Assembly (NCBI GenBank): GCA_034678705.1
Contig: JAXDBP010000030.1
Coordinates: 50,162 to 114,161 of the forward strand
DNA from: Bellilinea sp.
GTDB lineage: Bacteria > Chloroflexota > Anaerolineae > Anaerolineales > Anaerolineaceae
Length of the DNA: 64,000 bases
Direction of reading: 5' to 3'
Made by a program: the position numbers and the translations under genes. Positions 8,318 to 48,217 of the stretch are shown piece after piece (position 1 is the stretch's first letter; each line of letters starts with the position of its first letter). The notes under the pieces are model-generated. The model made no database searches. It saw only the letters and a program-made list of their open reading frames with translations, and had not been told where the DNA came from.

Positions 8318-8373
8318 CTGAACCTCCTGACCTGCCGATTCCTGGTCAGTGTACCTCATTTGATCGGGTGATT

Positions 8374-9924: not shown

Positions 9925-11267
9925 GGCTGCTGGACGCGCGCTTTCTGGTAGATCATCACCTGAGCCAGCGCGTCGACCGGCGCGCCGGCGGCGGTTTCGA
10001 ACAGGAAGTAGATTCGGTTTTCACGCCCCGGCTGGAGTGTGATTGGCGAGCCGGTCAGCAGGTGCGAAACATGCTGACTGCCGCTGCTCGATTGCACAGC
10101 GTACACCCTGTTCACGCGCCCGTCGGATATCAGGGTATGGCCTGGCGCCAACCCGCCCAGCGGGCGCAGGTGCTGGAATGAGCTTGCCGGCAGCAGATGG
10201 ACGAAATCGATGCTCAGCGACTTGGTCCCGGCGGCGGTGCATTCAGCCAGTATATGCAGCTCCAGGGGCTGGTAAGCGCCCCCGCCCATTTCGTCCGGCG
10301 GCAGGCGCAGGGCGGGCAGCGGCGCCAGGTACCGGTCGGGAGCGAGCAGCGTCTGCGCGGTTCGCAGCAGTTCCCCGCCGCCGGGGTTGACAACGCTCCA
10401 GCGCAGGTAGATGCCCGCGGCGGGCAGGGCTGCCAGGCGCAGCAGCGGGCGGAAGAGGCAGGCGCGCATATACTGGAGCTGAGACGGGCTGAGCAGCCAT
10501 TTCCACAGCGAGACCTCGCTCTGGGAGGTCCATTCAGCCAAGGCCAAGCGGCCGGCGGAGCAGCTCGAGTCAGCCGGCTGGCTGCTGCCCGTGCAGCCGC
10601 TGCCCGCCGTGCCGGCCTCGCCTTCGAGGACATGCTCGAAGGCGCCGCCGGTGTCCTTCAGGTCGAAGCCGGCGGCGATGTAGCAATCCAGCAGGGCTGC
10701 CGGAAACTCTTGCGGCAGGATCAGGCGCACCTGCACCGGGCAAGGCAGTGTACCGGTGACTTCTGCCGGACCGGCGTCGACGAAGTTCTGGTGACCGCTG
10801 GTTCCATCGCAATGGTTGCGGATCGCCAGGCCGTTCCAGATTTCCGTCCCGTTCTGGTTGCTGAGATCTAGAGCGCGCAGGTTCTCTTCCCAGTAGTCCG
10901 CCCGGGTGAGATACAGGCGCAGGATCTGCACACTGCGCTTGCGGTCGTTCAAACCGCCGTCGAGCAGCTCGACTTTGCCGGCGACCACCCGCGCGGAGAG
11001 TGTCGTCATGCCGGCGGCGCTTTGAAGGAAGAGGTAGGCGTCGTTGATGCGCGCCTGGCTGAGCGAAATTTTTTCTCCCAGGCTTTGCACCAGCGTCTGG
11101 ATGCCCGACCCGCGCAGGGCTAGGTCGATCACTTCTTCGACCAGCCCGCCGGGGAGCGCCTCGAGGCGCTCCTTGCGGCGGGCGCCGACCACCGGCGGGC
11201 TGACCGAGCTACCGTGCAGGTGCAGGGCGTTCGCCCCGTCCTGATCGGCAAGATAGAGTCTCTCCAT
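9921..11267 (-). CDS. Hypothetical phage-module protein (possible tail/baseplate component)
   Basis: 448-aa ORF in the same operon-like array. No motif recognised. Confidence 0.6.
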   Translation of the reverse strand: MERLYLADQDGANALHLHGSSVSPPVVGARRKERLEALPGGLVEEVIDLALRGSGIQTLVQSLGEKISLSQARINDAYLFLQSAAGMTTLSARVVAGKVELLDGGLNDRKRSVQILRLYLTRADYWEENLRALDLSNQNGTEIWNGLAIRNHCDGTSGHQNFVDAGPAEVTGTLPCPVQVRLILPQEFPAALLDCYIAAGFDLKDTGGAFEHVLEGEAGTAGSGCTGSSQPADSSCSAGRLALAEWTSQSEVSLWKWLLSPSQLQYMRACLFRPLLRLAALPAAGIYLRWSVVNPGGGELLRTAQTLLAPDRYLAPLPALRLPPDEMGGGAYQPLELHILAECTAAGTKSLSIDFVHLLPASSFQHLRPLGGLAPGHTLISDGRVNRVYAVQSSSGSQHVSHLLTGSPITLQPGRENRIYFLFETAAGAPVDALAQVMIYQKARVQQP

Positions 11268-11310
11268 GAGTCATTCTCCTCTGGATCAATCGATCCGGTC
11301 AGGCCGCGCC

Positions 11311-11766
11311 TCAACCCAGGTCGCCGTCCAGGCGCCAGCCGGCGGGGAGTTCATCCTCTCCGGTAGGGAAGGGCGCATCCGCCGAGCTTTGCAGCTCGCT
11401 CGTCCGCAACCGAGCCAGCAGGGCCAGCCCGTACTGGAATTGCTTGAGCAGCCCGCTGCCGGCGGCGGCGTAGGCCTGGCAGACGCCTGGCTGGAAGTTG
11501 TACAGGTCGGCGCGGCCGGCTGCCAGCATGAAGAGCGCGTACGCCGTTGCGCCGCGCGCCAGCAGTGATGCCAGCCCGGCGGGTATATCGGTCGCGACGG
11601 CGCCGTCCAGGCTGGCGAGGCTCCAGGCCTGACCGGCTGCCTGGTTGAGGTCATCCAGCGCCTGGTGAATACATTCACCGATTTCGGCCTCGCTCCAGGT
11701 CAGGCCGGGGCTGTCCTTCAAAAGGCAGCGCACCCGGGCGGTGATGGAGGTCAGACTGGCGCTCAT
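11311..11766 (-). CDS. Hypothetical phage-module protein (possible head-tail adaptor)
   Basis: 151-aa ORF. ATGA overlap with the 63-aa ORF upstream. Confidence 0.5.
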   Translation of the reverse strand: MSASLTSITARVRCLLKDSPGLTWSEAEIGECIHQALDDLNQAAGQAWSLASLDGAVATDIPAGLASLLARGATAYALFMLAAGRADLYNFQPGVCQAYAAAGSGLLKQFQYGLALLARLRTSELQSSADAPFPTGEDELPAGWRLDGDLG

Positions 11767-11954
11767 GGCTGCACCGCCCGGGTGAGCTTCTGCCCGCTCT
11801 TGAAAAGGATCACGATGCGGCCGGGGTAGATCTTCCAGGCCAGCACCTGCGCGCGGGGCATGCCCAGCTCAGCACAGGCCTGGTCAAGCCAGACCTCGAC
11901 GGCAGGTTTGCACGCCCGGGCGCGGGAAAGTGGTTTGCGGCTGGATACGGACAT
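11763..11954 (-). CDS. Small hypothetical phage-module protein
   Basis: 63-aa ORF in register with the array. Confidence 0.4.
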   Translation of the reverse strand: MSVSSRKPLSRARACKPAVEVWLDQACAELGMPRAQVLAWKIYPGRIVILFKSGQKLTRAVQP

Positions 11955-11990
11955 TGGCGGACTTCCTTGCCGGGGGTGGGCTGGCGGGGC

Positions 11991-12200
11991 TCAACTGCCC
12001 CGCCGTCCGGCATCCTCGATGGCCACGCCGGTGCTGTAGACCGCCAGCGCGGCGATCAGCGCCTGGACGGCCTGCCAGCCGTCCATCTGTCCGTTGCAGT
12101 AGCCGGCGGCGATGGCCGCCAGCGCAGCCAGCAGCACCCAGAACTTGCGCGAGCGCAGCATCATCTTGATTTGCTGCCAGAAAGTCAGATTCTCATTCAT
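11991..12200 (-). CDS. Holin-like small membrane protein
   Basis: 69 aa with two hydrophobic helices (FWVLLAALAAIAAGY and AVQALIAALAVYSTGVAI) and a charged C-terminus. Overlaps the lysin stop by 8 nt. Confidence 0.45.
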   Translation of the reverse strand: MNENLTFWQQIKMMLRSRKFWVLLAALAAIAAGYCNGQMDGWQAVQALIAALAVYSTGVAIEDAGRRGS

Positions 12201-13026
12201 TTTGGTTCTCCTCTACTTGGGGATGGATTTCGGGGTGAGCCAGCCAGAGCCTTTTGAGCATCTCCGACGGCTCGAGGGTCATACCGGGCGATTCGGGCGG
12301 ATCAGGGCGGCACCAGGCGCGCAGCTGCGCCAGGCCGCCGTTGAAGAAGTTCAAATCCAGCGGCGAGCGCGCCCCTGGCAGGATGAATTTCTCCGCGCTG
12401 AACTGCCAGAAGTGCCAGCCGCGGCAGTCCTCCGGCAGAGCCGGGGAGCTGATCCTGGGGAAATGCTGGCGCAACTGTTCCCAACTGCAGCTCACCCGCC
12501 CGCTGCCGTATGGGTAATGCGCCAGCCAGAGATCCCACTGCGGAAGCCAGGCGAGCATCGCCCTGGCGTAGTCGCGCACGAAGCTGGCGCGGGTGTAGAT
12601 CAGCACCGGCAGGCCGCTGACCGCCTGGATTTTGGCGGCAACGGTTTTGGCGCTCTGGCTGATGCGGTTGGGCGGGATGAAGCGGGTGACACGCCTGGCT
12701 TGCCATTCGTTCCAATCCTGCCAGTACTGCTCGACGTCGACCGCGGCGAAGGCTACCTGCTTGCCTTCGATCGCCGCCAGGAAGTTTTCAGCCTGGCGCC
12801 GGTCGTCGTGGGTCGGGTCGCACCAGTGATAGGCGCCGCAGATCAGCCCGGCGGAGAGCGCGCCCTGCAGGTGCTGCTCGAAGCGCGGGTCGCGCATGGA
12901 CGCTCCCTGCGCAGCTTTGAGGATGGCAAAGGCGACTCCACCGGCCTTGAGCTGAGCCCAGTCCAGGCGTATGTCCCAGCGGCTGGCGTCGATTCCAAGG
13001 GTGTAGGTCATCGGGGTGTTGTCCAT
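12193..13026 (-). CDS. GH25 family lysozyme/muramidase (endolysin)
   Basis: GIDASRWD..DWAQLKAGGVAFAILKAAQG...GAYHW...VDVEQ pattern typical of GH25. Confidence 0.8.
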   Translation of the reverse strand: MDNTPMTYTLGIDASRWDIRLDWAQLKAGGVAFAILKAAQGASMRDPRFEQHLQGALSAGLICGAYHWCDPTHDDRRQAENFLAAIEGKQVAFAAVDVEQYWQDWNEWQARRVTRFIPPNRISQSAKTVAAKIQAVSGLPVLIYTRASFVRDYARAMLAWLPQWDLWLAHYPYGSGRVSCSWEQLRQHFPRISSPALPEDCRGWHFWQFSAEKFILPGARSPLDLNFFNGGLAQLRAWCRPDPPESPGMTLEPSEMLKRLWLAHPEIHPQVEENQNE

Positions 13027-13046
13027 TTTGTCCTTTTGCCTTCTTT

Positions 13047-13120
13047 GTCATTCCGAGCGAAGCGAGGAATCTTTCCCTCCGTCCTTGAAGATTTCTCCTC
13101 GCTACGCTCGTCGAAATGAC
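13047..13120. repeat. REP/MITE-like imperfect hairpin repeat (GTCATTCCGAGCGAAGCGAGGAATC family)
   Basis: Near-identical to the copies at 33070-33144 and 33215-33289. The two halves are imperfectly inverted relative to each other. Confidence 0.8.
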
Positions 13121-13141
13121 ATCTTGGGACAGGAATGGCAG

Positions 13142-15031
13142 CTAAACCACATTCGCCTTGTAAAGCGGGCGGTAGTCGGCGACGAAGACGCTCAGCCAGT
13201 GGCGCACCTTCATACGCACCTCGTCGTTGCTGAACAGCGCCCCGCTGGTCTCTGAGTCGGAGATGAAGATCTCCGGCAGCAGACCGAAGCGCTCGGCGAC
13301 GATGATCGCCGGCGCCAGGCGCGGATCGGCGACCGCGGCCCAGTCGCTGGCGTCGCTGAACTCCGGACAGGTGATCACATCACCCATCTCGCCGCGCTGC
13401 AGGTTCTCGGAGAAGATGTTGGCCTCGCGCTCGAAGGACGGGTAGAGGATGCGCATGGCGGTCAGGCGCAGCGAGCGCGGCACGACGCAGTAACGCGCGT
13501 CCAGCGCCAGCCTGGGCGCCGTCCCGCCGCTGGCCAGCAGCATCGGCTGCTCGTAGATCGCCTGGCTGGCGGCCTCCCAGGACTCAGACGAGAGCGCCGC
13601 GCTGCCCAGGTTGGCGTGGTGGCTGGCGTCGAAGACGTTGTAGCTGTCCGCCATCTGCGGGCCGGCGCCGCTGTTGGCGGTGAAGACCGAGCCGACCAGC
13701 GCCGAGATGCGCCGCAGCGCCGCCGAGGCCAGCTTGTAGGGGTACTGGCGCAGCTTGTGGGTCTCGTCGCGCTCGAACATCTCCAGCGTCAGGCCGATGT
13801 AGCCGCCGTACTTGGTCCAGCCGGCGGTTTCGGCCGAGTCCTTGAGCTCCAGCTCGGTGTAGGGCGCGCCCTCATCCACGCTGGGCAGCACGGTCACCTC
13901 GCCGACCAGCACGCCGCTGATGGTGTGCAGGCTGGTGAAGTGCTCGACCGAGACGATCGGCTCCCACCAGCGGTAGCCGCTGCGCCCGAGCTCCTGCCAG
14001 CCCATCACGATCAGCTTGTTGAGCGCGTTTTTAAGCAGGCCGGGCAGGGTGGCGCTGGTGGCGAGCGCCGCCCGCTCGGGGTAGTAGCCGCCGTAGAAGC
14101 TGGTGTCGCCGGTCAGCATGGTGTACAGCTCGCGGATGCCGGAGAGGCGCGCGGTCTTGACCGACTTCAGGCCCTCCGGGCGTTCGGCGCCGAGCAGGTC
14201 GTAGGCCGCCGCGGTGAGCTGGTCCTCGCTGGAGACCATGCCGCTGATCCGCCCGGGTCCCTGCACGACCGCGCCGCCGGTCAACCGGGCGGCCAGATCG
14301 CGCCCGTCCTGAAGGGCGGCCCGCAACTCGGCCGGTTCGAAGATCCGCCCGCTGAACTGGGCGCGGATGCGCTCTGCCAGCGGCGCGGGCAGGTGCGCAG
14401 CCGTCAGGCTCTGCTCGAGCAGGCAGGCGCACATCTCCGCGCGCAGGGCGCGGGCCTTTTCCAGCTCGTCTGCGGCGGATTCGGGCGCGGCGGCAGCCGG
14501 CAATGAATTGGTTTGGGTTGCTTCGTCCATGGTGGGTTTACCTCCTTTGATCGTTTGTCTGGTTTGCTGATTGAGCGCGCGCAGGAAGGCCCCGCCGCGC
14601 GCAGGATTCATGACCACGTCCACCGAGAGCACGCGCAGGATCTTGCTCACCCTGCGCCCGCTGGCGGAGAAGAGAATATCGGCCGAGAAACCGACGTCCG
14701 GCCGGACGTCGCTGTTCAGCGCCGCCTGGGCCAGTTGATTGAGAATAGGTCCGCCCGGGCCGACCGCCTTGAGCGTCAGGCGGATGCCCTGGCGGGCGTC
14801 ATCCCAGACCGGCGAGTGCAGCACGCCGGCCAGGTCGCGCACGGAGTGACCCCAGAGGGAGTGGTCCAGGTAACATTCGCGACCGTCCCACAGCGCCAGC
14901 GACTCGCGCAGTACCTCGGCGGGAAAATCCCAGCCGTTGCCGGCGCCGGCGCTGATCGCCAGGATCTCGAACTTGCCGCCCTGCGGCGATGAGGAAAGGA
15001 GCAGGCGCTCCTGGATGGTTTCGTCTGACAT
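13142..15031 (-). CDS. Prohead protease (HK97 family-like) fused to major capsid protein
   Basis: N-terminus YLDHSLWGHSV ... GFSADILF resembles the His/Ser of a prohead protease. The C-terminal roughly 400 aa look capsid-like. Position after the portal gene fits. Confidence 0.65.
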   Translation of the reverse strand: MSDETIQERLLLSSSPQGGKFEILAISAGAGNGWDFPAEVLRESLALWDGRECYLDHSLWGHSVRDLAGVLHSPVWDDARQGIRLTLKAVGPGGPILNQLAQAALNSDVRPDVGFSADILFSASGRRVSKILRVLSVDVVMNPARGGAFLRALNQQTRQTIKGGKPTMDEATQTNSLPAAAAPESAADELEKARALRAEMCACLLEQSLTAAHLPAPLAERIRAQFSGRIFEPAELRAALQDGRDLAARLTGGAVVQGPGRISGMVSSEDQLTAAAYDLLGAERPEGLKSVKTARLSGIRELYTMLTGDTSFYGGYYPERAALATSATLPGLLKNALNKLIVMGWQELGRSGYRWWEPIVSVEHFTSLHTISGVLVGEVTVLPSVDEGAPYTELELKDSAETAGWTKYGGYIGLTLEMFERDETHKLRQYPYKLASAALRRISALVGSVFTANSGAGPQMADSYNVFDASHHANLGSAALSSESWEAASQAIYEQPMLLASGGTAPRLALDARYCVVPRSLRLTAMRILYPSFEREANIFSENLQRGEMGDVITCPEFSDASDWAAVADPRLAPAIIVAERFGLLPEIFISDSETSGALFSNDEVRMKVRHWLSVFVADYRPLYKANVV

Positions 15032-15041
15032 GGCTGCCTCC

Positions 15042-16415
15042 TCAGGATGGCTGGGTTCCCAACGGATGGGGCGGCTGATCGCCGGAACGCCCGCGGGCGA
15101 GCAGGTCGTTCACGTCGGCAACCTCGCCGAAGAAGCGGTAGGTCAGGCGCAGCATCTCGGCGTCGTCGATCAGCCCGCGGTCGCGCAGCTGCGCCAGCAC
15201 GCCGATGATGTGCCGTGCCGCCAGCCCCAATTGCAGGTTGTCGCGCGAGGATAGATCCGCGCCGTGCACTTCCAAGCGCGCCTGCGCATCGACGCGCCCG
15301 CGCCCGTTGACCGCGTGCTCGGCCAGCGCCCGCCGGTTGACGACCGCCCTCAGCACGTCGGCCAGCAGCCAGAGGAAGTAGGCCTGGCGCTGCTCGAAGC
15401 GGCGGTAGGTCGGCCCGCCGGCGGCCTCGGCGGTGGTGCGCGTGGCCGATTCCGGCTCGGCCAGGAAGTGCAATGGCAGCCCGGCGCCGGCAGCGATCAT
15501 CTTCTTCAGCGCCAGCCCGTCGGTGTTGGCCTCGTCCGATTCCAGGCGCGGATGGATCACCTCCCAGCTCTCGCTCTCGTCGGTCACCAGGATCGAGCCG
15601 GGCGAGGGCGGCGCGGCGTTGAGCTTTTGCTGGCGCGCCAGGCGCTCGCTCTCGCTGGTGAAGCGCGCCCTGACCACGTAGAGGAAGGCGGTGCGGAATC
15701 GGTTCAGCCTGGCGCGGTCTTCCAGCCAATTAGCGTAGCGGCTCAGCCAGCGCAGCACAGGGGCCAGGTCCGGCTCGCCCCACAGCGCGCCAGCCGGGCG
15801 GTTGACCGCGTAGTGCAGCACGACCGTCGGAAAGCCGCCCTCGGGGCCGGGCGCGTCGCTCTCGGCGTCATAGACCGGCCAGGGCCGCGGCTGGGGCTGT
15901 TCCAGCGTGGGGCGCGGCAATACGGCAGTTTCCTGATCCACATCGTTCGGGCGGTGCTGAATTTCGGCGACCTCGCTGGCCGGCACTGCGCGTACGTAGC
16001 TCATCCCGGCCGAGTCGGTCGAGAGCAGTACGAACAGGTTTCCGCTGCGCGAAAGCTCGTCGCACCACTCGCAGATGCGCACCGCCATCCGGTTGAGCGG
16101 GTGATTCCAGAAGGCCTCTAGAAAGCGCGCGGTCGGCGCGTGCTTGCAGCGCAGGCTGACCCCGCTACCGACCACATACTGGGTGGTCAGCTCGATCAGC
16201 CGGCGCGCCAGCGGATTCAGCCGCCAGGCCTCCAGCGACTGCTCCAGCAGCGTCTGACGGTCGGGGATCAGCCGGTCACGTGGGCCGCCGTTCAGGGCGC
16301 GGCTGCCGAGCAGAAAGGTCGCGTCGGTTTCCTCGGCCAGGCCCGCGCGCACCTGCCGGCGGATTTCGCCGGCGAACAGGCGCCTGACCAGTCCGGATAA
16401 GAGCGAAGATGGCAT
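15042..16415 (-). CDS. Phage portal protein
   Basis: 457 aa. RLNPLARRLIELTTQYVVGSGV block. Lies between the terminase and capsid genes. Confidence 0.75.
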   Translation of the reverse strand: MPSSLLSGLVRRLFAGEIRRQVRAGLAEETDATFLLGSRALNGGPRDRLIPDRQTLLEQSLEAWRLNPLARRLIELTTQYVVGSGVSLRCKHAPTARFLEAFWNHPLNRMAVRICEWCDELSRSGNLFVLLSTDSAGMSYVRAVPASEVAEIQHRPNDVDQETAVLPRPTLEQPQPRPWPVYDAESDAPGPEGGFPTVVLHYAVNRPAGALWGEPDLAPVLRWLSRYANWLEDRARLNRFRTAFLYVVRARFTSESERLARQQKLNAAPPSPGSILVTDESESWEVIHPRLESDEANTDGLALKKMIAAGAGLPLHFLAEPESATRTTAEAAGGPTYRRFEQRQAYFLWLLADVLRAVVNRRALAEHAVNGRGRVDAQARLEVHGADLSSRDNLQLGLAARHIIGVLAQLRDRGLIDDAEMLRLTYRFFGEVADVNDLLARGRSGDQPPHPLGTQPS

Positions 16416-16452
16416 GTCACCTCCTTGGGTGGAATGGGATGAGTAGGTCGGC

Positions 16453-17865
16453 TTAAAAGCCGCTGTCCAGCTCCCTGAGCGGGTCGCGCGTCCCGTCCGG
16501 CACGCCCCAGCGCATGCGCTTCTCGGGTCCGGGCAGGATCTGATACTGGCAGTTCCTCAACTGAGCCTGGAAGGGCTCCGACAGGGGAGCGGTCTCGCCG
16601 GCCGGTTCCTTCCAGCGCCCGCTGTCGACGACCGCCAGGAAATCCCAGCCGAGCTTGCTCTTGCTGGCGGCGCTGAACTGGAAGGCGATCACCCGCCCGG
16701 GCATGGCGCGGCTGAGAAAGGCCGCCAGCCCTGCGCCGACGCCGGTGGCATCCACTACCAGTTGACGCGCCTGCCAGGCTTCGGCCAGCGCCAGCAGTTC
16801 AGCGTACAGCCGGTCGTGCTTCTGGCCGGTCCACTGGCGGCGGTGGACGCAGCGGTAGGTCGGAGCGCGCAGCAGCGGATCGCTCAGCGTGGTCAGGTCG
16901 ACCTCGACGACGGTCAGCGCGGTCGCGTCCCGCCCCGGATTGCGCAGTTGCGCGGCTTCGCCGGGAGAGCCCTCCTCGGCGCCCTCGTCCGCGCCGGCCA
17001 CGTCCAGCAGCATGGCATAGAGCCGCCCCGGCAGCGGCGCATCCAGCGCGGCGTGGCTGCCGCGCATCAGCGCGCGGCGCGCGGGCGGGAACATGCCGCC
17101 GTCGCCGTCGATCTCCTCGCTGTAGAACTGGGTGCGGATCAGCGGGTGGCTGCGGCCCAGGCGGGCGACCTGCGCGGCGACGAAGCGCCGGTAGGCCGGA
17201 ACCTCAGCCGCCACCCGGTCAGCGTCGGCGACGAAGACGCGCTGCAGGCCGTCATGACGCTGGGCTTCGCGGGCGGCGCGCAGCTCGCGCGCAAGCAGCG
17301 TCTGGCTGGTCCAGGCCGTGCCCCAGAAGACGCGCGTGGCATTGGTCGAGGCGGCCATCGGCGCAATTTCCTTCTCGTATTTTTCGATCTGGATGTCCTG
17401 CGCCTCATCGACCGAAAGCAGCAGGTTGGCCGTCGCGCCGACGATGTTGGCCTCCGGCGATCCGCTCAGGAAGAAGATGCGCGCCTTGCCGACGCGGTAG
17501 ATGTAGCCCGACTCCTTCTGCCAGAGGCCGCGGGTGAGCAGGTTGCGCTCCAGCACGCGCTGCAGCCGGCGCATGGCGTTCAGCGACTGCGGCTTCCAGG
17601 TTGGGGATATCTTGACCATCTCGGCGTCCAGCTCCTGGCTGACCGCCAGCAGGTAGGTTTCGATCTGAGCCTGCAGCTCGTTCTTACCGGACTGGCGCGG
17701 GAACATGACCACGAAGGTCAACCCCTGCTTGAGCAGGGCAGAGCGCACCAGCGCGCGCATCACCTCGGCCTGGTAGCTGCGCAGCCGGATGCCCGAGCCG
17801 TAGCGGGCGAAGGCGACCGGGTCGGCGAGCAGGGACTTCTGGATTTCGAGCGGGATCGTGTTCAT
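16453..17865 (-). CDS. Terminase large subunit
   Basis: Walker A-like FPRQSGKNE, Walker B LLLSVDEAQ, C-terminal nuclease-like LLDVAG / VVDATGVG. Confidence 0.8.
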   Translation of the reverse strand: MNTIPLEIQKSLLADPVAFARYGSGIRLRSYQAEVMRALVRSALLKQGLTFVVMFPRQSGKNELQAQIETYLLAVSQELDAEMVKISPTWKPQSLNAMRRLQRVLERNLLTRGLWQKESGYIYRVGKARIFFLSGSPEANIVGATANLLLSVDEAQDIQIEKYEKEIAPMAASTNATRVFWGTAWTSQTLLARELRAAREAQRHDGLQRVFVADADRVAAEVPAYRRFVAAQVARLGRSHPLIRTQFYSEEIDGDGGMFPPARRALMRGSHAALDAPLPGRLYAMLLDVAGADEGAEEGSPGEAAQLRNPGRDATALTVVEVDLTTLSDPLLRAPTYRCVHRRQWTGQKHDRLYAELLALAEAWQARQLVVDATGVGAGLAAFLSRAMPGRVIAFQFSAASKSKLGWDFLAVVDSGRWKEPAGETAPLSEPFQAQLRNCQYQILPGPEKRMRWGVPDGTRDPLRELDSGF

Positions 17866-17982
17866 CGCGGCATGGTGCGGATGGGGGCGGGCGGCGCAGG
17901 GGTGCCGGGCGCGGTGAGGGAAATGCGGCGCGCGGAGGGCTGGGAGATGGCCGTGCCGCCGCCCGCCCAGGGGGGAACCGGG

Positions 17983-18321
17983 TCAGCCCAGCCCGCTGGT
18001 GAGGATGGACTGGATGCCCTTCTCTTTCAGCTCCGCGGCAATCTCGCGGATCGCGTCGCGGGTGTCGCCCTCCGGCGCGGCGCTCTCGCCCAGCTCGCGG
18101 CTGGCCTTGAGGATGCGCGCCAGGTGGTCGCTCGCCTCCGAAACGGCTTTGAGCGTCCTGAGCAGCTCGTCGAGCGAATCGGCCTGGTCGACCCTGGCCT
18201 TCGCCTCGCGGATCAGCAGGCGTACCAGGCGGATCTCCTGGCTGAGCGGGTTTTTCGCCTCGATCGATTTGCGCCGGGGGGTTTTGGGCTGGGCGGGGGT
18301 GGGGTGGGGTTCAGGGGGCAT
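17983..18321 (-). CDS. Small coiled-coil protein (possible small terminase or scaffold)
   Basis: Start taken at MPPEPHP (ATG 18321). Position upstream of TerL. No motif recognised. Confidence 0.4.
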   Translation of the reverse strand: MPPEPHPTPAQPKTPRRKSIEAKNPLSQEIRLVRLLIREAKARVDQADSLDELLRTLKAVSEASDHLARILKASRELGESAAPEGDTRDAIREIAAELKEKGIQSILTSGLG

Positions 18322-39608: not shown

Positions 39609-39837
39609 GATGCCTCCAACCTCTCCTGTTATTTTAACGCGAGTCAGCTTTTAACGGGTCTCCCGGCGGCGATAAAATCATCCAGCAAGCGCTATTTCTC
39701 ATCTGAATATTAATCTTAAGAAAAGGTTCCTGTGGTATGATAGCCCTGTTTGTGCAGGAATTTGATTAATAACATCCGGTAGTCGTCTGTCACTCATTCT
39801 TCCTGCGTCTGTGATTTTACGATTAAGGGAGAGAGAA

Positions 39838-40716
39838 ATGACCATGAAGATAGTGACCGACACCGGTTGCGATATTCCAGCCGAGAAGGCGGATGCGCTT
39901 GGGATCATCCGCGTGCCATTCAGCCTGACCTTCGCCGGCGCCACCCACACCAGCGACAGCCTGGATCCGGCAGTTTTCTACAAAATGCTCAAGGACAATC
40001 CTGATCTTTACCCGACCACTTCTCAGCCATCCGCCGGACAGTTCGTCGAGGTCTACGAAAAGCTGGTCAAGGAGGGGCATGAGATCCTCTCCCTGCATAT
40101 TTCCTCGGCTCTGAGCGGTACCTACAACTCGGCGGTCGCTGCCGCGGAGATCATCCGCCAGCGGTACCAGGACGCCAAAATCCACCTGTGGGATACCCGC
40201 ACCCTCTCGGTTGCCGAGGGCTGGCAGGTGCTGGCAGCCGCCAGCCTGCTCCGCGCAGGCAAAGGGCTGGAGGAGGTCGAAGCCACCCTGAGCCGGCTGC
40301 GCGAGAATGTCCGCTTCTTTTTCACCCTCGACACGCTCAAATACCTGATCCACGGCGGACGAATCAGCCACATCAAAGGCTTGATGGCCTCGCTGCTCAA
40401 CATCCGCCCGATCATCACGGTCAATCCGGAAGGCAGGTACGCCGAGACCGGCAAGTTTGTTTCCTTCCGCCGCGCCTTGCAGGGACTCGTCCCCACCGTG
40501 CGCGGATTGTTCGACCAGGCGCGCGAACTGCGCGTCCACGTCGTTCACGGCGATAATCCCGAGGGCGTTTCCAGCCTGATTGCCCACCTGGCCGAGAGCT
40601 TCCGCTGCCGCTTCGATCCGGTTCTGCGCGGAGACGTGGTCCTGGGCGCCCATACCGGCGAGAGCATCGTCGGCATGGCGGTCGGTTACGCCGAGGACCT
40701 GGCTCTGGTGGCTTAA
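39838..40716 (+). CDS. DegV family protein (second copy)
   Basis: MKIVTDTGCDIP... DegV layout. Start at ATG 39838. Confidence 0.85.
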   Translation: MTMKIVTDTGCDIPAEKADALGIIRVPFSLTFAGATHTSDSLDPAVFYKMLKDNPDLYPTTSQPSAGQFVEVYEKLVKEGHEILSLHISSALSGTYNSAVAAAEIIRQRYQDAKIHLWDTRTLSVAEGWQVLAAASLLRAGKGLEEVEATLSRLRENVRFFFTLDTLKYLIHGGRISHIKGLMASLLNIRPIITVNPEGRYAETGKFVSFRRALQGLVPTVRGLFDQARELRVHVVHGDNPEGVSSLIAHLAESFRCRFDPVLRGDVVLGAHTGESIVGMAVGYAEDLALVA

Positions 40717-40739: not shown

Positions 40740-42335
40740 TCACGCCGCCAGCGCTTTGACCAGATACAGCTCCCCGCATTCAAATCCGCGCGCCTGGTAG
40801 TAGCGCCGCGTTCCGATGGCGGCGATGACCGCCAGGCGCTCGAACCCTGCCGCGCGCGCGACCTGCTCGGCTTCGGTCAGCAGGCGCGTGCCCAGGCCGC
40901 TGTGCTGGGCTGCCCCCTGCTGATCCACCCCCACCGGCAGCGACTGCCCGTAGACGTGCACCTCGCGGATCAGCGCTGCGCCCTCCAGGTCGCTCAGGTC
41001 AAGCTTGGGCGCGCCCGGCTGCGGCAGCGAGAGGCGCAGGTAGCCGGCGATCCTGCCCTGCGGCGTGCGGAAGTGGAGGAAGTGCTCCTCGGCGGCCTCG
41101 GCCGGGTAGGTCAGGTCGTGCAGTGACACCGCCCGCGGGTCGATCGGCTCGCCGCGCACCTCGTGACAGCGGATGCAGCCGCAGGCCTGCCCGCGCCGGG
41201 CCAGCTCGGCCTGCACGTCCATGCGCAGGCTGGTGCGTTTGTTGCCGGCTACCACGTGGGTCGAGGGGATGTCGCGGATCACCCGGTTGACCCGGCAGTA
41301 GGCCGGGATGCCCGGCTTGAGCTCGGCGATCAGCTCGATTAATTCCTCAGTGGCGTAGGGCCGGTACTCGCCGCGCTGCCAGTGCGCGTGCAGTTCGGTG
41401 CCCTCCAGCAGCTGGCAGGGGTAGATCTTGATCTCGTCCGGGCAATAGCCCTGCCACAGCCGGGCAAAGTCGGCCCGGTCGGATTCGAGCGTCGCGCCGA
41501 GCAGGTTGGGCATCCAGTGCAGCACCACCTTGAAGCCCGCCGTGCGCAGCAGGGCGCAGGCATGCAGCGTCTGCGCGGCGCTGTGACCGCGCTGGTTCAG
41601 CTCCAGGATGCGGTCGTCCAGCGACTGCGCGCCCATCTGCACCTTGGTTACCCCCAGGTAGCGCAGCCAGGCGATCTCTTTTGGCGTGATCTCGTCCGGG
41701 CGGGTCTCGATCACCAGCCCGACGTTGCGCTGAGCGGCGGTCTCGTTCAGGCGCTGAGCCTCATCCAGGGTAGCGGAATCGACCCCGTTCATCGCGTCGA
41801 AGCAGCGCTGCACGAACCACTCCTGATAGTCGCGCCGATAGGCGCTCCAGGTGCCGCCCAGGATGAGCAGCTCGATCTTGTCAGTCGGGTGGCCGTTGGC
41901 CGCCAGAGCCTGGATGCGGCTGGCGACCTGTGCGTAGGGGTCGAAGCCGTGCTGGACGGCGCGCGCCGCGCCGGGCTCGTCCGGCAGGTAGCTCTTCGGC
42001 AGGCGCACGTCGTCCGGGCAGAAGATGCATTTGCCCGGGCAGGGGTAGGGCTTGGTCAGCACCGTCACCGTGGTCACGCCCGAGAGCGTGCGCACCGGCT
42101 TCATACGGATGCGCCCGAGCAACTCAAGATCGGGCGCCAGCTCGCCGGCGGCGACCAGCTCGTGATAGGCTGCCACCAGCATCGACTTGGACAGATAGCC
42201 GCCGCCCGGCAGGGGATGCCGGCGCAACGCCTGGAAGGCGTCCTGCCCGCGGTGCACTTCGTCCAGCACGTCGCGGGCGGCGGACAGTTTATCGGCGGTC
42301 AGCTGGCGGGTTTGCTGCCAGTGGTCCTTGTCCAT
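40740..42335 (-). CDS. elp3: Elp3-type radical SAM/GNAT tRNA uridine(34) modification enzyme
   Basis: KPVRTLSGVTTVTVLTKPYPCPGKCIFCP radical-SAM cluster. C-terminal REVHVYG...QHSGLGTRLL...IGTRRYYQARGF acetyltransferase domain. Confidence 0.9.
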   Translation of the reverse strand: MDKDHWQQTRQLTADKLSAARDVLDEVHRGQDAFQALRRHPLPGGGYLSKSMLVAAYHELVAAGELAPDLELLGRIRMKPVRTLSGVTTVTVLTKPYPCPGKCIFCPDDVRLPKSYLPDEPGAARAVQHGFDPYAQVASRIQALAANGHPTDKIELLILGGTWSAYRRDYQEWFVQRCFDAMNGVDSATLDEAQRLNETAAQRNVGLVIETRPDEITPKEIAWLRYLGVTKVQMGAQSLDDRILELNQRGHSAAQTLHACALLRTAGFKVVLHWMPNLLGATLESDRADFARLWQGYCPDEIKIYPCQLLEGTELHAHWQRGEYRPYATEELIELIAELKPGIPAYCRVNRVIRDIPSTHVVAGNKRTSLRMDVQAELARRGQACGCIRCHEVRGEPIDPRAVSLHDLTYPAEAAEEHFLHFRTPQGRIAGYLRLSLPQPGAPKLDLSDLEGAALIREVHVYGQSLPVGVDQQGAAQHSGLGTRLLTEAEQVARAAGFERLAVIAAIGTRRYYQARGFECGELYLVKALAA

Positions 42336-42416
42336 TTTGGAATGCTATCCTGTACGTTCGACATCGACGCGGTTGGCGGTTTTAGCAGCGGCGCGGCTGT
42401 GATATAGTTGCTCTAG

Positions 42417-43169
42417 ATGGAAATCAGCGTCGTCAATCAACTCCTCGAGCTTAACCGAAGATTCTACCAGACTTTCGGGCCGGCCTTCGCCGCCACCCGC
42501 CGGCGCATCCAGCCGGGCGTGCGCCGGGTGATCGCCGGGCTGCCGGTCGGGGCGCGCCTGCTCGACCTGGGCTGCGGTTCGGGCGCGCTGGCGCTCGAGC
42601 TCGACCGGCTCTGGCCAACCGGCAGTTACCTCGGCCTGGATTCCAGCGCCGAGCTGCTGGCCGCCGCCCGCGCCGCGCTGCGCCAGGCCAAACCCGGCGG
42701 CGTGGACGTCCGCTTCGCCCGCGCCGACCTGGCCGACCCGGGCTGGGTCGAGCTGGCCGCCGCCCAGCCAATCGACGCCTGCCTGGCCTTCGCCGTGCTG
42801 CACCACCTGCCCGGCGCGGATCTGCGCGAGCGGCTGCTGCGCCAGGTGAATGTGCTGCTGCCGGAAGGCGGGCTGTTCATCCATTCCGAGTGGCAATTGC
42901 AACACTCGCCGCGCCTGTTAAAACGTGTCCAGCCGTGGATCGCGGTTGGCCTGAGCGAAGCAGACGTCGACCCCGGCGACACGCTGATCGACTGGCGCTT
43001 TGCCCTGCCTGGGCAGGATGAGCAGGTCGGTTTGCGCTACGTGCACATCTTCACGCCGGAGGAGCTGGCCGAGCTGGCCGCCCGGACGGACTTCGAAGTG
43101 AGGTCGACTTTCGAGTCCGACGGCGAGGGGGGCAGGTTAGGGCTGTATCAGGTGTGGAGGAAATCGTAG
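42417..43169 (+). CDS. Class I SAM-dependent methyltransferase, Trm9/ALKBH8-like
   Basis: FYQTFGPAFAATRRRIQPGV, LLDLGCGSG, FAVLHHLPGADLRERLL and LRYVHIFTPEELAEL blocks. Confidence 0.7.
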   Translation: MEISVVNQLLELNRRFYQTFGPAFAATRRRIQPGVRRVIAGLPVGARLLDLGCGSGALALELDRLWPTGSYLGLDSSAELLAAARAALRQAKPGGVDVRFARADLADPGWVELAAAQPIDACLAFAVLHHLPGADLRERLLRQVNVLLPEGGLFIHSEWQLQHSPRLLKRVQPWIAVGLSEADVDPGDTLIDWRFALPGQDEQVGLRYVHIFTPEELAELAARTDFEVRSTFESDGEGGRLGLYQVWRKS

Positions 43170-43369: not shown

Positions 43370-43921
43370 TCACTCGGCGCGTGCCATTCGCATGACCCCT
43401 TCATCTATTTCATCACCCCAATCAACAGAATAATATCCCATTCGAACATAACGGTGAAAACTTGACCAGGGCCAATCTCTGACGCTTTGGACAAGGCCGT
43501 GTTTTACCGGATTGTAGTGGATATATTCAATGTGCTTTTCCAAATCCAGGTCATCCCGAATCTTGTGTTCCCAAAACCGGCGCTGCCAAATCGCGGCCTC
43601 ATTTCGTTTTTGACGCGATTCATTCCTGTGCTCTCCCGTACCAATTTCGGCCAAAAAATCTTTTGTAAATAATCGTTTAATCTCTTTCCAGCGGACTGAA
43701 TAATTCGAGTCCGCTTCCGGTAAAGTCCAAATACAATGGAGATGGTCGGGTAATAGACAGATTGCGTCCAGGCTAAAAGGAAAACGTTTCATCACGTCCT
43801 TCCATACGCGATGCAATATCCTCCTTGCGGGTTCGGAGGTGAGAATTGGCTGCCTGGCGAAGGTGACAACCGTGAAGAAGTAGGTTCCACCATCAACTCG
43901 TGATCGGCGATATTCTGGCAT
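43370..43921 (-). CDS. REP-associated tyrosine transposase (RAYT, IS200-like Y1/HUH)
   Basis: HUH DHLHCIW. WQRRFWEHKIRDD and YIHYNPVKHGLV. Flanked by inverted REPs. No tnpB. Confidence 0.8.
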   Translation of the reverse strand: MPEYRRSRVDGGTYFFTVVTFARQPILTSEPARRILHRVWKDVMKRFPFSLDAICLLPDHLHCIWTLPEADSNYSVRWKEIKRLFTKDFLAEIGTGEHRNESRQKRNEAAIWQRRFWEHKIRDDLDLEKHIEYIHYNPVKHGLVQSVRDWPWSSFHRYVRMGYYSVDWGDEIDEGVMRMARAE

Positions 43922-44049
43922 TTTGTTAAGGATTGGATAGAAAGAGATGCAAAATTCGTTTGAGAAAGTACCAATAACCCCGCTGAATCAGTAATACCTA
44001 TATTATATGATAACTGTCTAGGATGATACTGTCCAGGAAGAGGCAAGAT

Positions 44050-44072
44050 GGTGCGTCAGCGACGCACCCTAC
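44050..44072. repeat. GTAG-type REP hairpin (inverted copy)
   Basis: GGTGCGTCAGCGACGCACCCTAC. Confidence 0.8.
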
Positions 44073-44473
44073 AATACTACAATACTGTTCCGCTCCAGCG
44101 TCCCCACATTTTGTGGATATATTTGCGCCGTTCGTTCACATTCATCGGGTCTGTTTCGGACATCGTAGGCCTCAGTAACATTTTCTTTTGACCTAACGAT
44201 TGTATTTCGGTAACATTTTATGTGAACTAACGCGAATCATATGCATTTTGGTACTTTAGTAGTAAAATAAAATGTTAGGAAGATATTGGTAATAATTTAC
44301 GGGGTATGGTTACCAATAGAATCATTGGTTCCTCAAATTAATATGGTGATTGCAAAATGGTAATTGCCGAGTTTAATTACGAAGCACCTCATTATAGATA
44401 CCTTATCTGACCTCGCGCTAAGAGTTATTTGCGGTTAGCTATGAATTGGTAAGCATGCCTCAAATGGTAGAAC

Positions 44474-45121
44474 ATGGCAATCCGAATTTTGATTGCGGAT
44501 GGTTATGGATTTTCGAGGGCGGGTATCCGTTACACGCTATCTACATACCAACATCAAGAAATATTGGGGGAGGTAACTAACAGTGAAATGACTATTAATT
44601 TGGTGAAGGAATTAAAACCCGATATTTTACTATTTGATATCAATATATTTGGATTGAATGTAAGTGATATATTATCAAGGCTTATAAAAAGTAATCCTTC
44701 GACACGGGTGATTGTTTTAGCAGCATATGATGATCGCTATTTTGTATTGGATATATTACGTGCCGGAATTAAAGGCTATATATCCAAAGAAGATGATCCC
44801 GAAGATTTATTAAAGGCGATATCTGTAGTGATGGATGGTAAAACTTGGCTGAGTCCAAAAGTCTCAGCAATGGTCATTAATAATCTCGATGGAGCAAAAT
44901 CCGGGGATAAATCTTTAATGTTAAGTGCAAGGGAAATTATGATTTTACGCCTATTATGTAAAGGCTACCGTAGTAAAGTTATTGGGAGCGAACTTGGAAT
45001 TTCTAAACGTACTGTGGATTATTATATTGGAAGAATAATTCGAATACTCGGTGTAAAAAACAGAGCAGAGGCAGTAGCCAAAGCAATTCATCTTGGTTTG
45101 ATCACGTGGTTTGATTTATAG
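44474..45121 (+). CDS. NarL/FixJ (LuxR-type HTH) response regulator, orphan
   Basis: Receiver domain (ILIADG..., DILLFDI, GIKGYISK) plus C-terminal LSAREIMILRLLCKGYRSKVIGSELGISKRTVDYY HTH. Confidence 0.85.
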   Translation: MAIRILIADGYGFSRAGIRYTLSTYQHQEILGEVTNSEMTINLVKELKPDILLFDINIFGLNVSDILSRLIKSNPSTRVIVLAAYDDRYFVLDILRAGIKGYISKEDDPEDLLKAISVVMDGKTWLSPKVSAMVINNLDGAKSGDKSLMLSAREIMILRLLCKGYRSKVIGSELGISKRTVDYYIGRIIRILGVKNRAEAVAKAIHLGLITWFDL

Positions 45122-45196
45122 CAAAAAAGCGCTCGTTCACGGCGAGAGCTTTTTCGTTACACTGAGTAGAGCCCATATTAGCCCAATTACCCCGAA

Positions 45197-45400
45197 TCAT
45201 TTACCCGGTCTTTTTCGTTTATCTAATGTGGCAATAATCGCCGCGACTGCCCCAATGTAAGGAATTAATAATATCGTTAGAATCCAAATAGCTCGAGCAG
45301 AATCTGATAAATCACGAAATCGAATGATCCAGTAGATAGCAATTGAGCATATTAATACCCAGGTGATTGCCAGAAAAGGATAATAAAAGACCCCTGCCAT
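45197..45400 (-). CDS. Small membrane protein, PLD-N-terminal-like
   Basis: 67 aa with two TM helices. ARAIWILTILLIPYIGAVAAIIA. Confidence 0.5.
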   Translation of the reverse strand: MAGVFYYPFLAITWVLICSIAIYWIIRFRDLSDSARAIWILTILLIPYIGAVAAIIATLDKRKRPGK

Positions 45401-45497
45401 AACTTATATCCTAAGTAGAAGACGAGTCATTGGCAATAGGTACCGCTTGTTGTTACGTACAACTTTGATACAACATATTGTGAATAGACATCTTCGA

Positions 45498-46106
45498 TCA
45501 AAGTTGTTTTAATACCCCGCTTGCTTGTACATAGCCTGAATAAGAAAAATATGTACCAAGACTGGGATATGAATACTGGCTTAAGTTTTCCCATTGATGG
45601 AACGGTCCTGCATAAGTGCCTGACATATCCATCTGGTAGAAGGTGGCCGGTGCTACTGCTCTCCATGGATTCCAATACGCAATATACGCCCGATTATATA
45701 GTTCTCCAACCACACCTAATATCGGTCTCGATAATTGAATTCCACACACTTGCCATGTAGTCCAATAATCAGCAGCCGGAATAATTTTAGTATTATATTG
45801 ACTTATTAACAATGAGGCGCTATAAAAAGGTACCACATAAGATGTAACAATAACAAAAGTATCCGTGTCGTTAAGGCGATATGTGACTTGATTTCCAGGT
45901 GTTACTCGGATTGGACGATTGTTAATATCGTTTATTAATATCGCCTCTATATTATAATCTTGATCAGGAGCAGATTGAGGGACAGGATTTGATTTAAAGG
46001 CTGAAACTGAATGTTTTGGTAAACAAATCGCGATTAGAATTATTATTAATACTACAGAAAATATGTTCCTTACGGCATTGTTCTTGCCCAATCTTCCCTC
46101 CTTCAT
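45498..46106 (-). CDS. Hypothetical secreted/anchored protein
   Basis: Start at MKEGRLG after GGAGGGA. N-terminal hydrophobic anchor. Aromatic-rich. AT-rich codon usage. Confidence 0.5.
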   Translation of the reverse strand: MKEGRLGKNNAVRNIFSVVLIIILIAICLPKHSVSAFKSNPVPQSAPDQDYNIEAILINDINNRPIRVTPGNQVTYRLNDTDTFVIVTSYVVPFYSASLLISQYNTKIIPAADYWTTWQVCGIQLSRPILGVVGELYNRAYIAYWNPWRAVAPATFYQMDMSGTYAGPFHQWENLSQYSYPSLGTYFSYSGYVQASGVLKQL

Positions 46107-46305
46107 GGCGAAGGGACAATTTGTTTTCACTACTTTTGTCCTATATACAATTCTATACAAAGCCCTGTGATACATCAATGTCAAAATTACCAATCCCCTG
46201 TCAAATTTGTATCAATTTTTCTCAATCGGAGTTCTATGGTGCAGTGGCGCGCTGCGGTTCGTGCGCCACAATGACCCTTGAGCAGCGCCACTGCATCCTA
46301 CGGTT

Positions 46306-46959
46306 CTACGAAAGCTCCGGCCTCCTCAGCGGCGCATAGCTGCGCCGGTGTTCCGCGCACGGACCCAGCCGCGTCAACGCCTCGCGGTGCATCCGCGTCC
46401 CATAGCCCTTGTGCGCGGCGAAGCCGTACTCCGGATATGTTTCCCCCAGCTCGACCATCCAGGCGTCCCGTTCAGTTTTGGCCAGCACCGAGGCGGCGGC
46501 GATGCTCAGCGAGCGCGCGTCGCCCTTGACCAGCGCAAGCTGCGGCAGCTTGACCGCCGGCAGGCGCAGCGCGTCGATCAGCAGGTGCTCGGGCTGGCAG
46601 CCGCAGGCCTCCAGCGCGCGCGCCATCGCCAGCCGGGTGGCGGCGATGATCCCGCGCGCGTCGATCTCCTCCGCGCTGGCCGCGCCGATTCCCCAGGCGG
46701 CCGCCGCCAGGCGGATTTGACCGGCCCAGTAGGCGCGCTGCCTGGGGGTCATCTGCTTCGAATCGCGCACCCCGCGCAACTCCTCCAGCATGCCGTTCTG
46801 GGGCGGCAGGATCACCGCCGCGGCATAGACCGGCCCAGCCCAGGCGCCGCGGCCGGCTTCGTCCAGTCCGGCAAGTAAGGTTACCCCGCCTTCCCAGAGG
46901 GGCAGCTCGCAGCTCAGGTCGGGGAACGGCGGCGGCTCAATCCGCTCGGGGCGCGGCAT
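46306..46959 (-). CDS. rnhB: Ribonuclease HII
   Basis: GLDEAGRGAWAGPVYAAAV ... DSK ... GYG. Start at ATG 46959 after GAGGAG. Confidence 0.85.
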   Translation of the reverse strand: MPRPERIEPPPFPDLSCELPLWEGGVTLLAGLDEAGRGAWAGPVYAAAVILPPQNGMLEELRGVRDSKQMTPRQRAYWAGQIRLAAAAWGIGAASAEEIDARGIIAATRLAMARALEACGCQPEHLLIDALRLPAVKLPQLALVKGDARSLSIAAASVLAKTERDAWMVELGETYPEYGFAAHKGYGTRMHREALTRLGPCAEHRRSYAPLRRPELS

Positions 46960-47677
46960 CGTAAGCTCCTCGCCGCCCATTGGCGCGGATCGTCAGCAGG
47001 TCGCGGAACATGCGCCAGGAATCGCGCAGCACGCGCACTTTGGATTCCGGGTTGAAATACCAGTCGATCGGGATTTCGCGGATCTGATAGCCGCGCCGGC
47101 GGGCAATGTAGAGCACCTCCACATCGAAGGTCCAGCCGACGATCGTCTGGAGCGGGAAAACCTCCTCAGCCACTGCCGCGCGGAAACACTTGAAGCCGCA
47201 TTGCGTGTCCTGCAATCCGGGCAGGGCCAGCCAGCGCACCAGCGCGTTGAAGGCCCGCCCGGTCAGGTGGCGGTATTCGGGCTCGTTGTAGCGCACCGCC
47301 CCGGGCGACTCGCGCGAGGCGATGGCGATGTCGACCCCGTCGAGCTGCGGCGGCAGGAAGCGGTTGATCTGTTCGATCGGCATCGACAGGTCGGCGTCGC
47401 AGATGAAGCGGTACTGTCCGGCCGCCGCCAGCATGCCGGCGCGCACCGCGCGGCCCTTGCCGCGCTGCTCCTCGTGCAGCGCGCGGACGCGCCTGTCGCG
47501 GGCGGCTAACTCGCGGGCGATCTCCAGCGTGCGGTCGCGGCTGCCGTTCTCGACGACAACCACCTCGGCGGCATAGCTCTGCTGGTCGAGAAAGCGAAGA
47601 ATGCCCTCCAGCGTCTCGGGCAGGCGGGATTCCTCGTTGTAGGCGGGGATGATGATGGAGAGTAAGGGGGTGGTCAA
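46937..47677 (-). CDS. Family 2 glycosyltransferase (polyprenyl-phosphate sugar transferase-like)
   Basis: LSIIIPAYNEE ... DADL ... architecture. Confidence 0.85.
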   Translation of the reverse strand: MTTPLLSIIIPAYNEESRLPETLEGILRFLDQQSYAAEVVVVENGSRDRTLEIARELAARDRRVRALHEEQRGKGRAVRAGMLAAAGQYRFICDADLSMPIEQINRFLPPQLDGVDIAIASRESPGAVRYNEPEYRHLTGRAFNALVRWLALPGLQDTQCGFKCFRAAVAEEVFPLQTIVGWTFDVEVLYIARRRGYQIREIPIDWYFNPESKVRVLRDSWRMFRDLLTIRANGRRGAYDAAPRAD

Positions 47678-48141: not shown

Positions 48142-48217
48142 TGGTCGGGGTGGGCGGACTTGAACCGCCGACCCCCGCGTCCCAAACGCGGTGCGCTGCC
48201 AACTGCGCTACACCCCG
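48142..48217 (-). tRNA. tRNA-Pro (anticodon TGG), CCA encoded
   Basis: Manual fold: acceptor CGGGGTG/CACCCCG, D arm GCGC-AGTTGGCA-GCGC, anticodon arm CCGCG-TTTGGGA-CGCGG, T arm GGCGG-TTCAAGT-CCGCC, then A-CCA. 76 nt. Confidence 0.85.

Follow-up and report, generated by a model that had tools for sequence, protein, structure and literature searches.

The closest described counterparts of the gene pair reported here are archaeal and eukaryotic. Eukaryotic and archaeal Trm9 methyltransferases (MTases) require the partner protein Trm112. In archaea, Elp3 makes 5-carboxymethyluridine (cm5U) unaided, and Trm9-Trm112 of Haloferax volcanii (HvoTrm9-Trm112) makes 5-methoxycarbonylmethyluridine (mcm5U) (PMC6144793, PMC7663514), with HvoTrm9 depending on Trm112 in vivo (PMC6144793). 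An Elp3-Trm9 gene cluster was noted in 2008 in the archaeon Sulfolobus solfataricus (PMC2584109). For bacteria, a 2017 review described homologues of the Trm112-dependent MTases, Trm9 included, as undetectable (PMC5372719), and a 2020 review confined bacterial Elp3 to Dehalococcoides, with no evidence there for carboxymethyl-type derivatives of the wobble uridine (xcm5U34) (PMC7663514). We analyzed a 64,000-nt stretch of DNA from Bellilinea sp. (contig JAXDBP010000030.1, assembly GCA_034678705.1; hereafter the window) that carries an elp3 gene and, divergently adjoining it, a gene for a Trm9-like class I MTase dependent on S-adenosylmethionine (SAM). To our knowledge, the Elp3 of Dehalococcoides mccartyi (DmcElp3; 5L7J) is the only characterized bacterial Elp3.

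An earlier note on this DNA had suggested a eukaryote- or archaea-style module modifying U34 of tRNA, and had known of no described bacterial Elp3-Trm9 pair. The second statement stands for bacteria, as no description of such a pair, in Chloroflexota or in other bacteria, was found in the literature searched on Elp3 and Trm9 in bacteria. It needs one addition, namely the archaeal cluster (PMC2584109). Since that cluster was already known, the novelty lies in bacterial occurrence rather than in the clustering of the genes. The S. solfataricus and Bellilinea loci share the adjacency of Elp3 and a Trm9-family gene in a prokaryote, whereas the module in the window is bacterial and phylum-wide.

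Both open reading frames (ORFs) of the pair were found at the coordinates first proposed for them, separated by the divergent spacer:

40740-42335, minus strand: elp3, 531 aa, ATG start, with radical-SAM and GNAT/KAT domains
42336-42416: divergent intergenic region, 81 bp, between the elp3 and MTase starts
42417-43169, plus strand: Trm9-like class I SAM-dependent MTase, 250 aa, ATG start

Every peptide block quoted earlier was present in the two translations: CPGKCIFCP at Elp3 residues 99-107, and in the MTase FYQTFGPAFAATRRRIQPGV at residues 16-35, LLDLGCGSG at 48-56, FAVLHHLPGADLRERLL at 125-141, and LRYVHIFTPEELAEL at 206-220. GC content at third codon positions is 0.90 for elp3 and 0.86 for the MTase gene, high like that of the host genome. 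This match to the host marks both genes as native and as lying outside the low-GC island found downstream.

The product of 40740-42335 is confirmed as a bona fide Elp3 by its sequence matches, in line with its first description as a clear Elp3 homologue. It scored 468.6 bits against the NCBIfam model TIGR01211 (cut-off 350), covering model positions 50-522 of 522, and carried the Pfam domains Radical_SAM, Radical_SAM_C, and Acetyltransf_1 (3.4e-5). The best PDB match was DmcElp3 (E 4.4e-113), followed by archaeal MinElp3 (~2e-109) and eukaryotic Elp3 (~1e-80); the scores against MinElp3 and DmcElp3 are thus almost equal. When the window protein was aligned with ten relatives (11 sequences), the Fe-S cysteines C99/C103/C106 (CxxxCxxC), the Zn-site cysteines C385/C387/C390, and the acetyl-CoA motif Q477-H478-x-G480-x-G482 were all invariant. 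A three-Cys Zn site is typical of bacterial and archaeal Elp3 (PMC6367351). Like archaeal Elp3, the window protein stands alone, without Elp1, 2, or 4-6.

The two bacterial Elp3 proteins belong to the same enzyme family (43% identity across residues 70-529) but differ at the N terminus. With 459 aa, DmcElp3 represents a short form, whereas the window Elp3 is a long form whose ~78 additional N-terminal residues are kept within its clade. Published work attributes the weak tRNA binding of DmcElp3 to its short N terminus, and the extended basic N terminus of archaeal and eukaryotic Elp3 serves tRNA binding. The N-terminal 70-78 aa of the window protein have no net basic charge (10 Lys + Arg versus 11 Asp + Glu), and HMMER alignments to archaeal and eukaryotic Elp3 begin only at residue 71-72. 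A bacterial Elp3 with a long N terminus may be more active than DmcElp3 and is a potential tool.

The spacer offers limited regulatory detail. An extended -10-like element (TGATATAGT, 42400-42408) ends 8 nt 5' of the MTase ATG. The 81-bp spacer lacks a Shine-Dalgarno sequence for this gene, whose mRNA may have no leader or almost none. As a consensus promoter scan gave no full -35/-10 promoter in 42336-42416, we infer the promoter positions: both the elp3 and the MTase promoters presumably sit in the shared spacer, and the two genes would be co-regulated from it. Separately, ARAGORN called a tRNA-Arg(GCG) at 41539-41615, antisense within the elp3 coding sequence, which we judged spurious and likely a GC-rich false positive.

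Conservation of the gene pair in Chloroflexota

Linkage of the two genes was assessed in both directions. Starting from the MTase, species-representative genomes were scanned, which yielded 10 full-length relatives (Bellilinea, Anaerolinea, Anaerolineaceae, Anaerolineales, unclassified Chloroflexota, and four Caldilineaceae; 80% to 33% identity) together with 16 loci that matched the SAM-binding core alone. The latter, mostly from Actinomycetota, served as controls. Two contigs from exact look-ups were added, making 12 genome loci at which the homologue is full-length and the flank long enough. Elp3 lay upstream on the opposite strand at 12 of the 12 full-length loci and at 0 of the 16 controls. 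Even the two most divergent MTases checked (31% and 36% identity) had an Elp3-type gene divergently adjoining, 70 and 24 bp away. Most related loci likewise have a short divergent spacer (20-330 bp).

Starting from Elp3, 80 metagenomic loci were collected, all from close relatives (64-78% identity). Twelve with an upstream flank under 900 bp were left out of the count. The MTase was present at 63 of the 68 testable loci, full-length and divergent at 53 and truncated, mostly by a contig end, at 10. Loci whose Elp3 is closer to the window protein also tend to have a closer MTase (Spearman rho 0.68, p 2e-10, n=68 for the two identities), a correlation that fits joint inheritance of the two genes. 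The genes around the pair vary between lineages, so that conservation is limited to the pair itself. The pairing is far above chance, and it shows that the MTase is coupled to Elp3 at the genomic level. Conserved synteny with elp3 in other genomes, which had been named as a point to check, was thereby borne out in both directions.

The characterized bacterial Elp3 also has such a neighbour. We rebuilt the DmcElp3 sequence from its PDB alignment and located the D. mccartyi gene (P0425, CP019867.1). A divergent 224-aa MTase lies 43 bp upstream, so the DmcElp3 locus shares with the window a divergent Trm9-like MTase neighbour. Among Dehalococcoidia-type loci, 4 of the 5 testable, D. mccartyi included, have such an MTase by Elp3; locus L116 has none, and L117 fell outside the count as it has no upstream flank. 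The Dehalococcoidia MTases (216-224 aa) matched the window family by hhalign at 99.9% (E 2.6e-31) and Trm9 at 99.1% (E 5.6e-19), and their profile ranked Trm9 second in the PDB. They carry HH, VWN, VPW, and RYY motifs, the last of which indicates that the equivalent of Trm9 Y243 is kept. They are shorter than the window MTase and more canonically Trm9-like. A by-eye mapping of Trm9 N271 to their N212 is not claimed, as the hhalign alignment stops just short of it.

The pairing thus holds in two Chloroflexota classes, Anaerolineae and Dehalococcoidia. Elp3 occurs widely among Anaerolineae, Caldilineaceae included, and a Trm9-like MTase nearly always lies alongside. This widespread pairing, found in D. 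mccartyi as well, points in the opposite direction to both reviews cited above.

Several loci carry further genes near the pair. In 11 loci of one Anaerolineae sub-lineage (among them L050, L053, L054, L063, L064 at 9160-10001, L072, L078, L081, L082, and L092), a gene resembling the adenylylsulfate/phosphoadenylylsulfate (APS/PAPS) reductase CysH (PF01507, 2.8e-47; CC…CxxC and ECGLH motifs) lies between the MTase and Elp3 in the direction of Elp3. This gene may be linked to sulfur chemistry or to thiolation. At L110, a 767-aa Aminotran_5 gene of the cysteine-desulfurase type (9121-11424) directly follows the MTase. The four Dehalococcoidia pairs (L114, L115, L118, and L119) keep ruvB, the queuosine tRNA-modification gene queH, and a GNAT gene upstream.

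Relationship of the methyltransferase to Trm9

To place the MTase, we compared it with fungal Trm9, using the deposited Yarrowia chain (5cm2_Z) and yeast Trm9 (ScTrm9). The ScTrm9 sequence was used only once it had been checked against the Yarrowia chain (E 4.5e-71). The Trm9 blocks that had earlier been quoted for comparison (TRYKPWP, AVIHHFSTPERR, and RYRYYHLYREGEI) likewise agreed with 5cm2_Z. A shallow profile of 35 sequences (profile A1) placed Trm9 at rank 17 in the PDB (E 2.5e-7); among the matches listed, Trm9 alone aligned across nearly the whole profile. With hhalign against deposited Yarrowia Trm9 (YlTrm9), a value of 97% was obtained before the larger profile described next.

An exhaustive HMMER search found 700 family representatives (50% identity clustering) at E ≤ 1e-30. 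The 150 best matches were all strong family members, so the family boundary lies beyond them. We then used a profile of 100 diverse members, 31-53% identical to the window MTase (profile A2). Against 177,635 distinct PDB sequences, profile A2 ranked Trm9 (5cm2_Z) first (63.9 bits, E 1.1e-16), leading the next match by 7 bits. Trm9 was aligned over nearly the whole profile (positions 25-223), whereas the runners-up among the matches listed reached the Rossmann core only. By hhalign, profile A2 matched Trm9 with 99.2% probability (E 1.3e-19). These profile comparisons show the MTase family to be remotely, but specifically, homologous to Trm9. In agreement, IMG automatically labels many family members "tRNA (uracil-5-)-methyltransferase TRM9", while the NCBI label is generic class I MTase. 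A phmmer search of Trm9 against the collected family was discarded, its E-values being inflated by the tiny database.

The window MTase shares with eukaryotic Trm9/ALKBH8 (5CM2) the class I SAM-dependent fold and the genetic tie to Elp3. Common sequence features are the N-terminal TR, the HH after motif IV, the W after strand β5, the (V)PW/DW Trp, and the C-terminal RY-H strand. The differences are the bacterial host, an identity of 23-26% only, and the lack of the fungal insertion and of AlkB or RRM domains.

The shared positions could be compared with published mutagenesis. Alanine mutants of ScTrm9 at R29, D72, H116, W145, W168, R241, Y243, and N271 are zymocin-resistant (Létoquart et al. 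2015, PMC4678810). D72A, H116A, W145A, and W168A are inactive in vitro, while the other four (R29A, R241A, Y243A, and N271A) have a specific activity at least ten-fold lower, still measurable for Y243A and N271A (PMC4678810). R29, H115, and H116 have been proposed to position the carboxylate of cm5U (PMC4678810). Outside motif I, the (near-)invariant residues of the window MTase family are Y17, R28, D75, H129, H130, W159, W193, R207, Y208, H210, and D235. Their ScTrm9 equivalents are, in the same order, Y18, R29, D72, H115, H116, W145, W168, R241, Y242, H244, and D270. The family therefore keeps six of the eight residues essential in Trm9, namely R28, D75, H130, W159, W193, and R207 (98-100% of 100 members), and these six are invariant in the alignment that includes both Trm9 sequences. 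This alignment shows that most substrate-binding and catalytic residues of Trm9 are conserved in the MTase family. The blocks first singled out by inspection contain residues that Trm9 needs for activity by mutagenesis (PMC4678810).

Trm112 contacts strand β3 and the β3-β4 loop of Trm9, shielding a hydrophobic patch. In the window MTase family, the β3-β4 loop is longer than that of Trm9 and contains a short helix as well as W110, a conserved Trp. The Anaerolineae-type MTase may work without Trm112.

All four Dehalococcoidia pairs have a conserved ORF of 72-75 aa with a zinc ribbon (CPxC…CWKC) downstream of the MTase and on the same strand:

L114, 6426-6650, MTase strand: zinc-ribbon ORF
L115, 6390-6605, MTase strand: zinc-ribbon ORF
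L118, 4970-5185, MTase strand: zinc-ribbon ORF
L119, 4694-4909, MTase strand: zinc-ribbon ORF

It was rejected as a Trm112 homologue, having no Pfam Trm112p match and none in a PDB profile search. A role as a non-homologous functional partner of the Dehalococcoidia MTase is possible. No counterpart was found near the Anaerolineae pairs.

Predicted function and rival explanations

With moderate confidence, we read the pair as a conserved two-enzyme U34 module in which Elp3 makes cm5U34 and the MTase esterifies it to mcm5U34. The Trm9 profile match and the synteny with Elp3 both support the eukaryote- or archaea-style module suggested at the outset, and bacteria probably make mcm5U-type tRNA modifications. 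Elp3 alone, in the archaeal manner, would use radical-SAM chemistry and acetyl-CoA to place a carboxymethyl group on C5 of U34, giving cm5U. The Trm9-like MTase would then use SAM to form the methyl ester of the cm5U carboxyl, giving mcm5U, or 5-methoxycarbonylmethyl-2-thiouridine (mcm5s2U) where a 2-thiolase acts too. We infer U34 of tRNA as substrate and mcm5U as product. The role of bacterial Elp3 thereby becomes a concrete prediction, namely mcm5U or mcm5s2U in Chloroflexota tRNA, and cultivable hosts exist (Anaerolinea, Bellilinea, and Caldilinea). The Elp3-MTase pair is also relevant to how the Elongator pathway arose in evolution.

A bolder and more tentative version extends this to a Chloroflexota-wide Elp3-to-Trm9 pathway to mcm5U-type wobble uridines. 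Here, Trm9 would act without Trm112, by way of a remodelled β3-β4 loop in Anaerolineae and perhaps a new, non-homologous zinc-ribbon partner in Dehalococcoidia. If this is true, Chloroflexota would provide the first Trm9 known from bacteria, and also the first to dispense with Trm112; the Elp3-Trm9 module would then seem to be older than the archaeal-bacterial divide or to have passed across it in one piece. A Trm9 that is possibly independent of Trm112 would be useful for structural and mechanistic work.

Other bacterial enzymes are known to act at this position. MnmE/MnmG provide an alternative bacterial route to xm5U34, yielding 5-carboxymethylaminomethyluridine (cmnm5U) or 5-aminomethyluridine (nm5U). 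CmoM methylates a U34 side-chain carboxyl, converting uridine 5-oxyacetic acid (cmo5U) to its methyl ester (mcmo5U). All of these enzymes are unrelated to the Elp3/Trm9-like pair. CmoM (8JOZ) matched the MTase family over the Rossmann core only (E 8e-5 with profile A1) and was not among the best 60 matches listed for profile A2. Neither mnmE nor mnmG was found within the window.

Several results weigh against the module. Neither the window nor the related loci yielded a Trm112-like gene (PF03966), although one may lie elsewhere in the genome. Five of the 68 testable metagenomic Elp3 loci have no MTase within the available flank. The remainder concern two residues of the predicted substrate pocket and the searches that failed to single out Trm9. 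As to Elp3 loci without an MTase within 7-10 kb on either side (L039, L045, and L105; also L044, L101, and L116), either the partner is encoded elsewhere, or the lineage stops at cm5U or another derivative.

The rival that survives best, though unlikely, keeps the MTase downstream of Elp3 on U34 of tRNA and changes the product: the enzyme would act on a different xcm5 intermediate or side chain and yield something other than plain mcm5U, its pocket having diverged. Of the eight essential Trm9 residues, two have indeed been replaced: V209 takes the place of Y243, and G236 that of N271, in 78-93% of Anaerolineae-type members. The substrate pocket may differ accordingly, and the β3-β4 loop is longer. 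H. volcanii diverts its cm5U intermediate to other, unidentified products (PMC6144793), and the PAPS-reductase-like gene within the pair at 11 loci and the Aminotran_5 gene at L110 hint at nearby sulfur chemistry. Nevertheless, the equivalents of R29, H115/H116, and R241, which would hold the carboxylate and serve catalysis, are conserved. Trm9 itself retains measurable activity as Y243A or N271A (PMC4678810), and the Dehalococcoidia MTase retains Y243.

An improbable rival takes the MTase to be a generic small-molecule or protein methyltransferase, its place beside elp3 reflecting shared regulation or genomic inertia rather than a common pathway. The MTase matched only generic Pfam families (Methyltransf_23/25/12/11/31), and none of the curated NCBIfam models reached its cut-off. 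In a single-sequence phmmer search of the PDB, Yarrowia Trm9 (5cm2_Z) came 39th (E 0.055), its match falling in the C-terminal half and not on the SAM motif. We also searched by structure with an AlphaFold2 model of the MTase (predicted local distance difference test score 92.9). Foldseek placed Trm9 17th amid near-equivalent class I MTases, although Trm9 holds the best target-normalized template modelling score of the top 50 matches (0.78). Comparison of the predicted fold does not discriminate among class I MTases here. The best single-sequence PDB and Foldseek matches were uncharacterized or natural-product MTases, and IMG names some family members UbiG-like.

Against a generic enzyme, Elp3 adjacency persists to 31% MTase identity and in two Chloroflexota classes with all flanking genes changed, yet Elp3 is absent from the 16 control MTase loci. 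The invariant residues beyond the SAM site coincide with tRNA-binding and catalytic residues of Trm9, and Trm9 is the first PDB match by profile. Its signal emerged because profile sensitivity rose from a single sequence to 35 and then to 100 sequences. The HMM and structure searches that the earlier note had called for agree with it in part: the diverse profile puts Trm9 first, while the single-sequence search and Foldseek do not. The note had also allowed for membership in UbiE/UbiG-like families. The best NCBIfam scores were Tam at 39.5 bits (cut-off 320), UbiG at 26.2 (103), BioC at 25.4 (185), and UbiE at 24.4 (216), all far under the cut-offs and with matches spanning the SAM-binding core only. 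With Trm9 at the top of the PDB profile search, this assignment did not hold.

That bacterial Elp3 and the MTase instead share a substrate other than U34 of tRNA (rRNA, another RNA position, or a protein) is highly improbable: xcm5U34 has no direct evidence in any Elp3-bearing bacterium and DmcElp3 activity in vitro is very weak (PMC7663514), but acetyl-CoA hydrolysis by DmcElp3 is triggered specifically by tRNA, with no such effect of histone peptides, tubulin peptides, or nucleic acids of other kinds (PMC6367351), and every characterized Elp3 and Trm9 enzyme acts on U34.

Surroundings of the pair in the window

The MTase gene is separated from an RNase HII-glycosyltransferase family 2 (GT2) segment (46306-47677) by a stretch at 43370-46300. 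This stretch contains a transposase of the REP-associated tyrosine type (NF047646, 6e-57) and, at GC 0.38 versus ~0.62, a low-GC island that carries a LuxR/GerE-type response regulator (44474-45121). At locus L001, the genes for RNase HII, GT2, an esterase, and FUR come immediately after the MTase gene and are ordered as in the window. As the MTase there lies straight next to RNase HII, the 43370-46300 stretch of the window is an insertion. On the other side of the pair, a gene of the DegV family (fatty-acid-binding; 39811-40716) lies immediately downstream of elp3 and convergent with it; the pair does not keep this neighbour in other loci. Its paralogue is at 2017-2862. A tRNA-Pro(UGG) gene, whose product has U34, is located at 48142-48217, 5 kb from the pair.

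Farther away, the window starts with a polymerase-domain gene, and ~8300-18000 is a prophage-like remnant with several large ORFs that have no Pfam match:

36-2042: family B DNA polymerase domain protein, at the window start
12193-13026: glycoside hydrolase family 25 (GH25) lysozyme
13142-15031: phage capsid protein
15042-16415: portal-like protein

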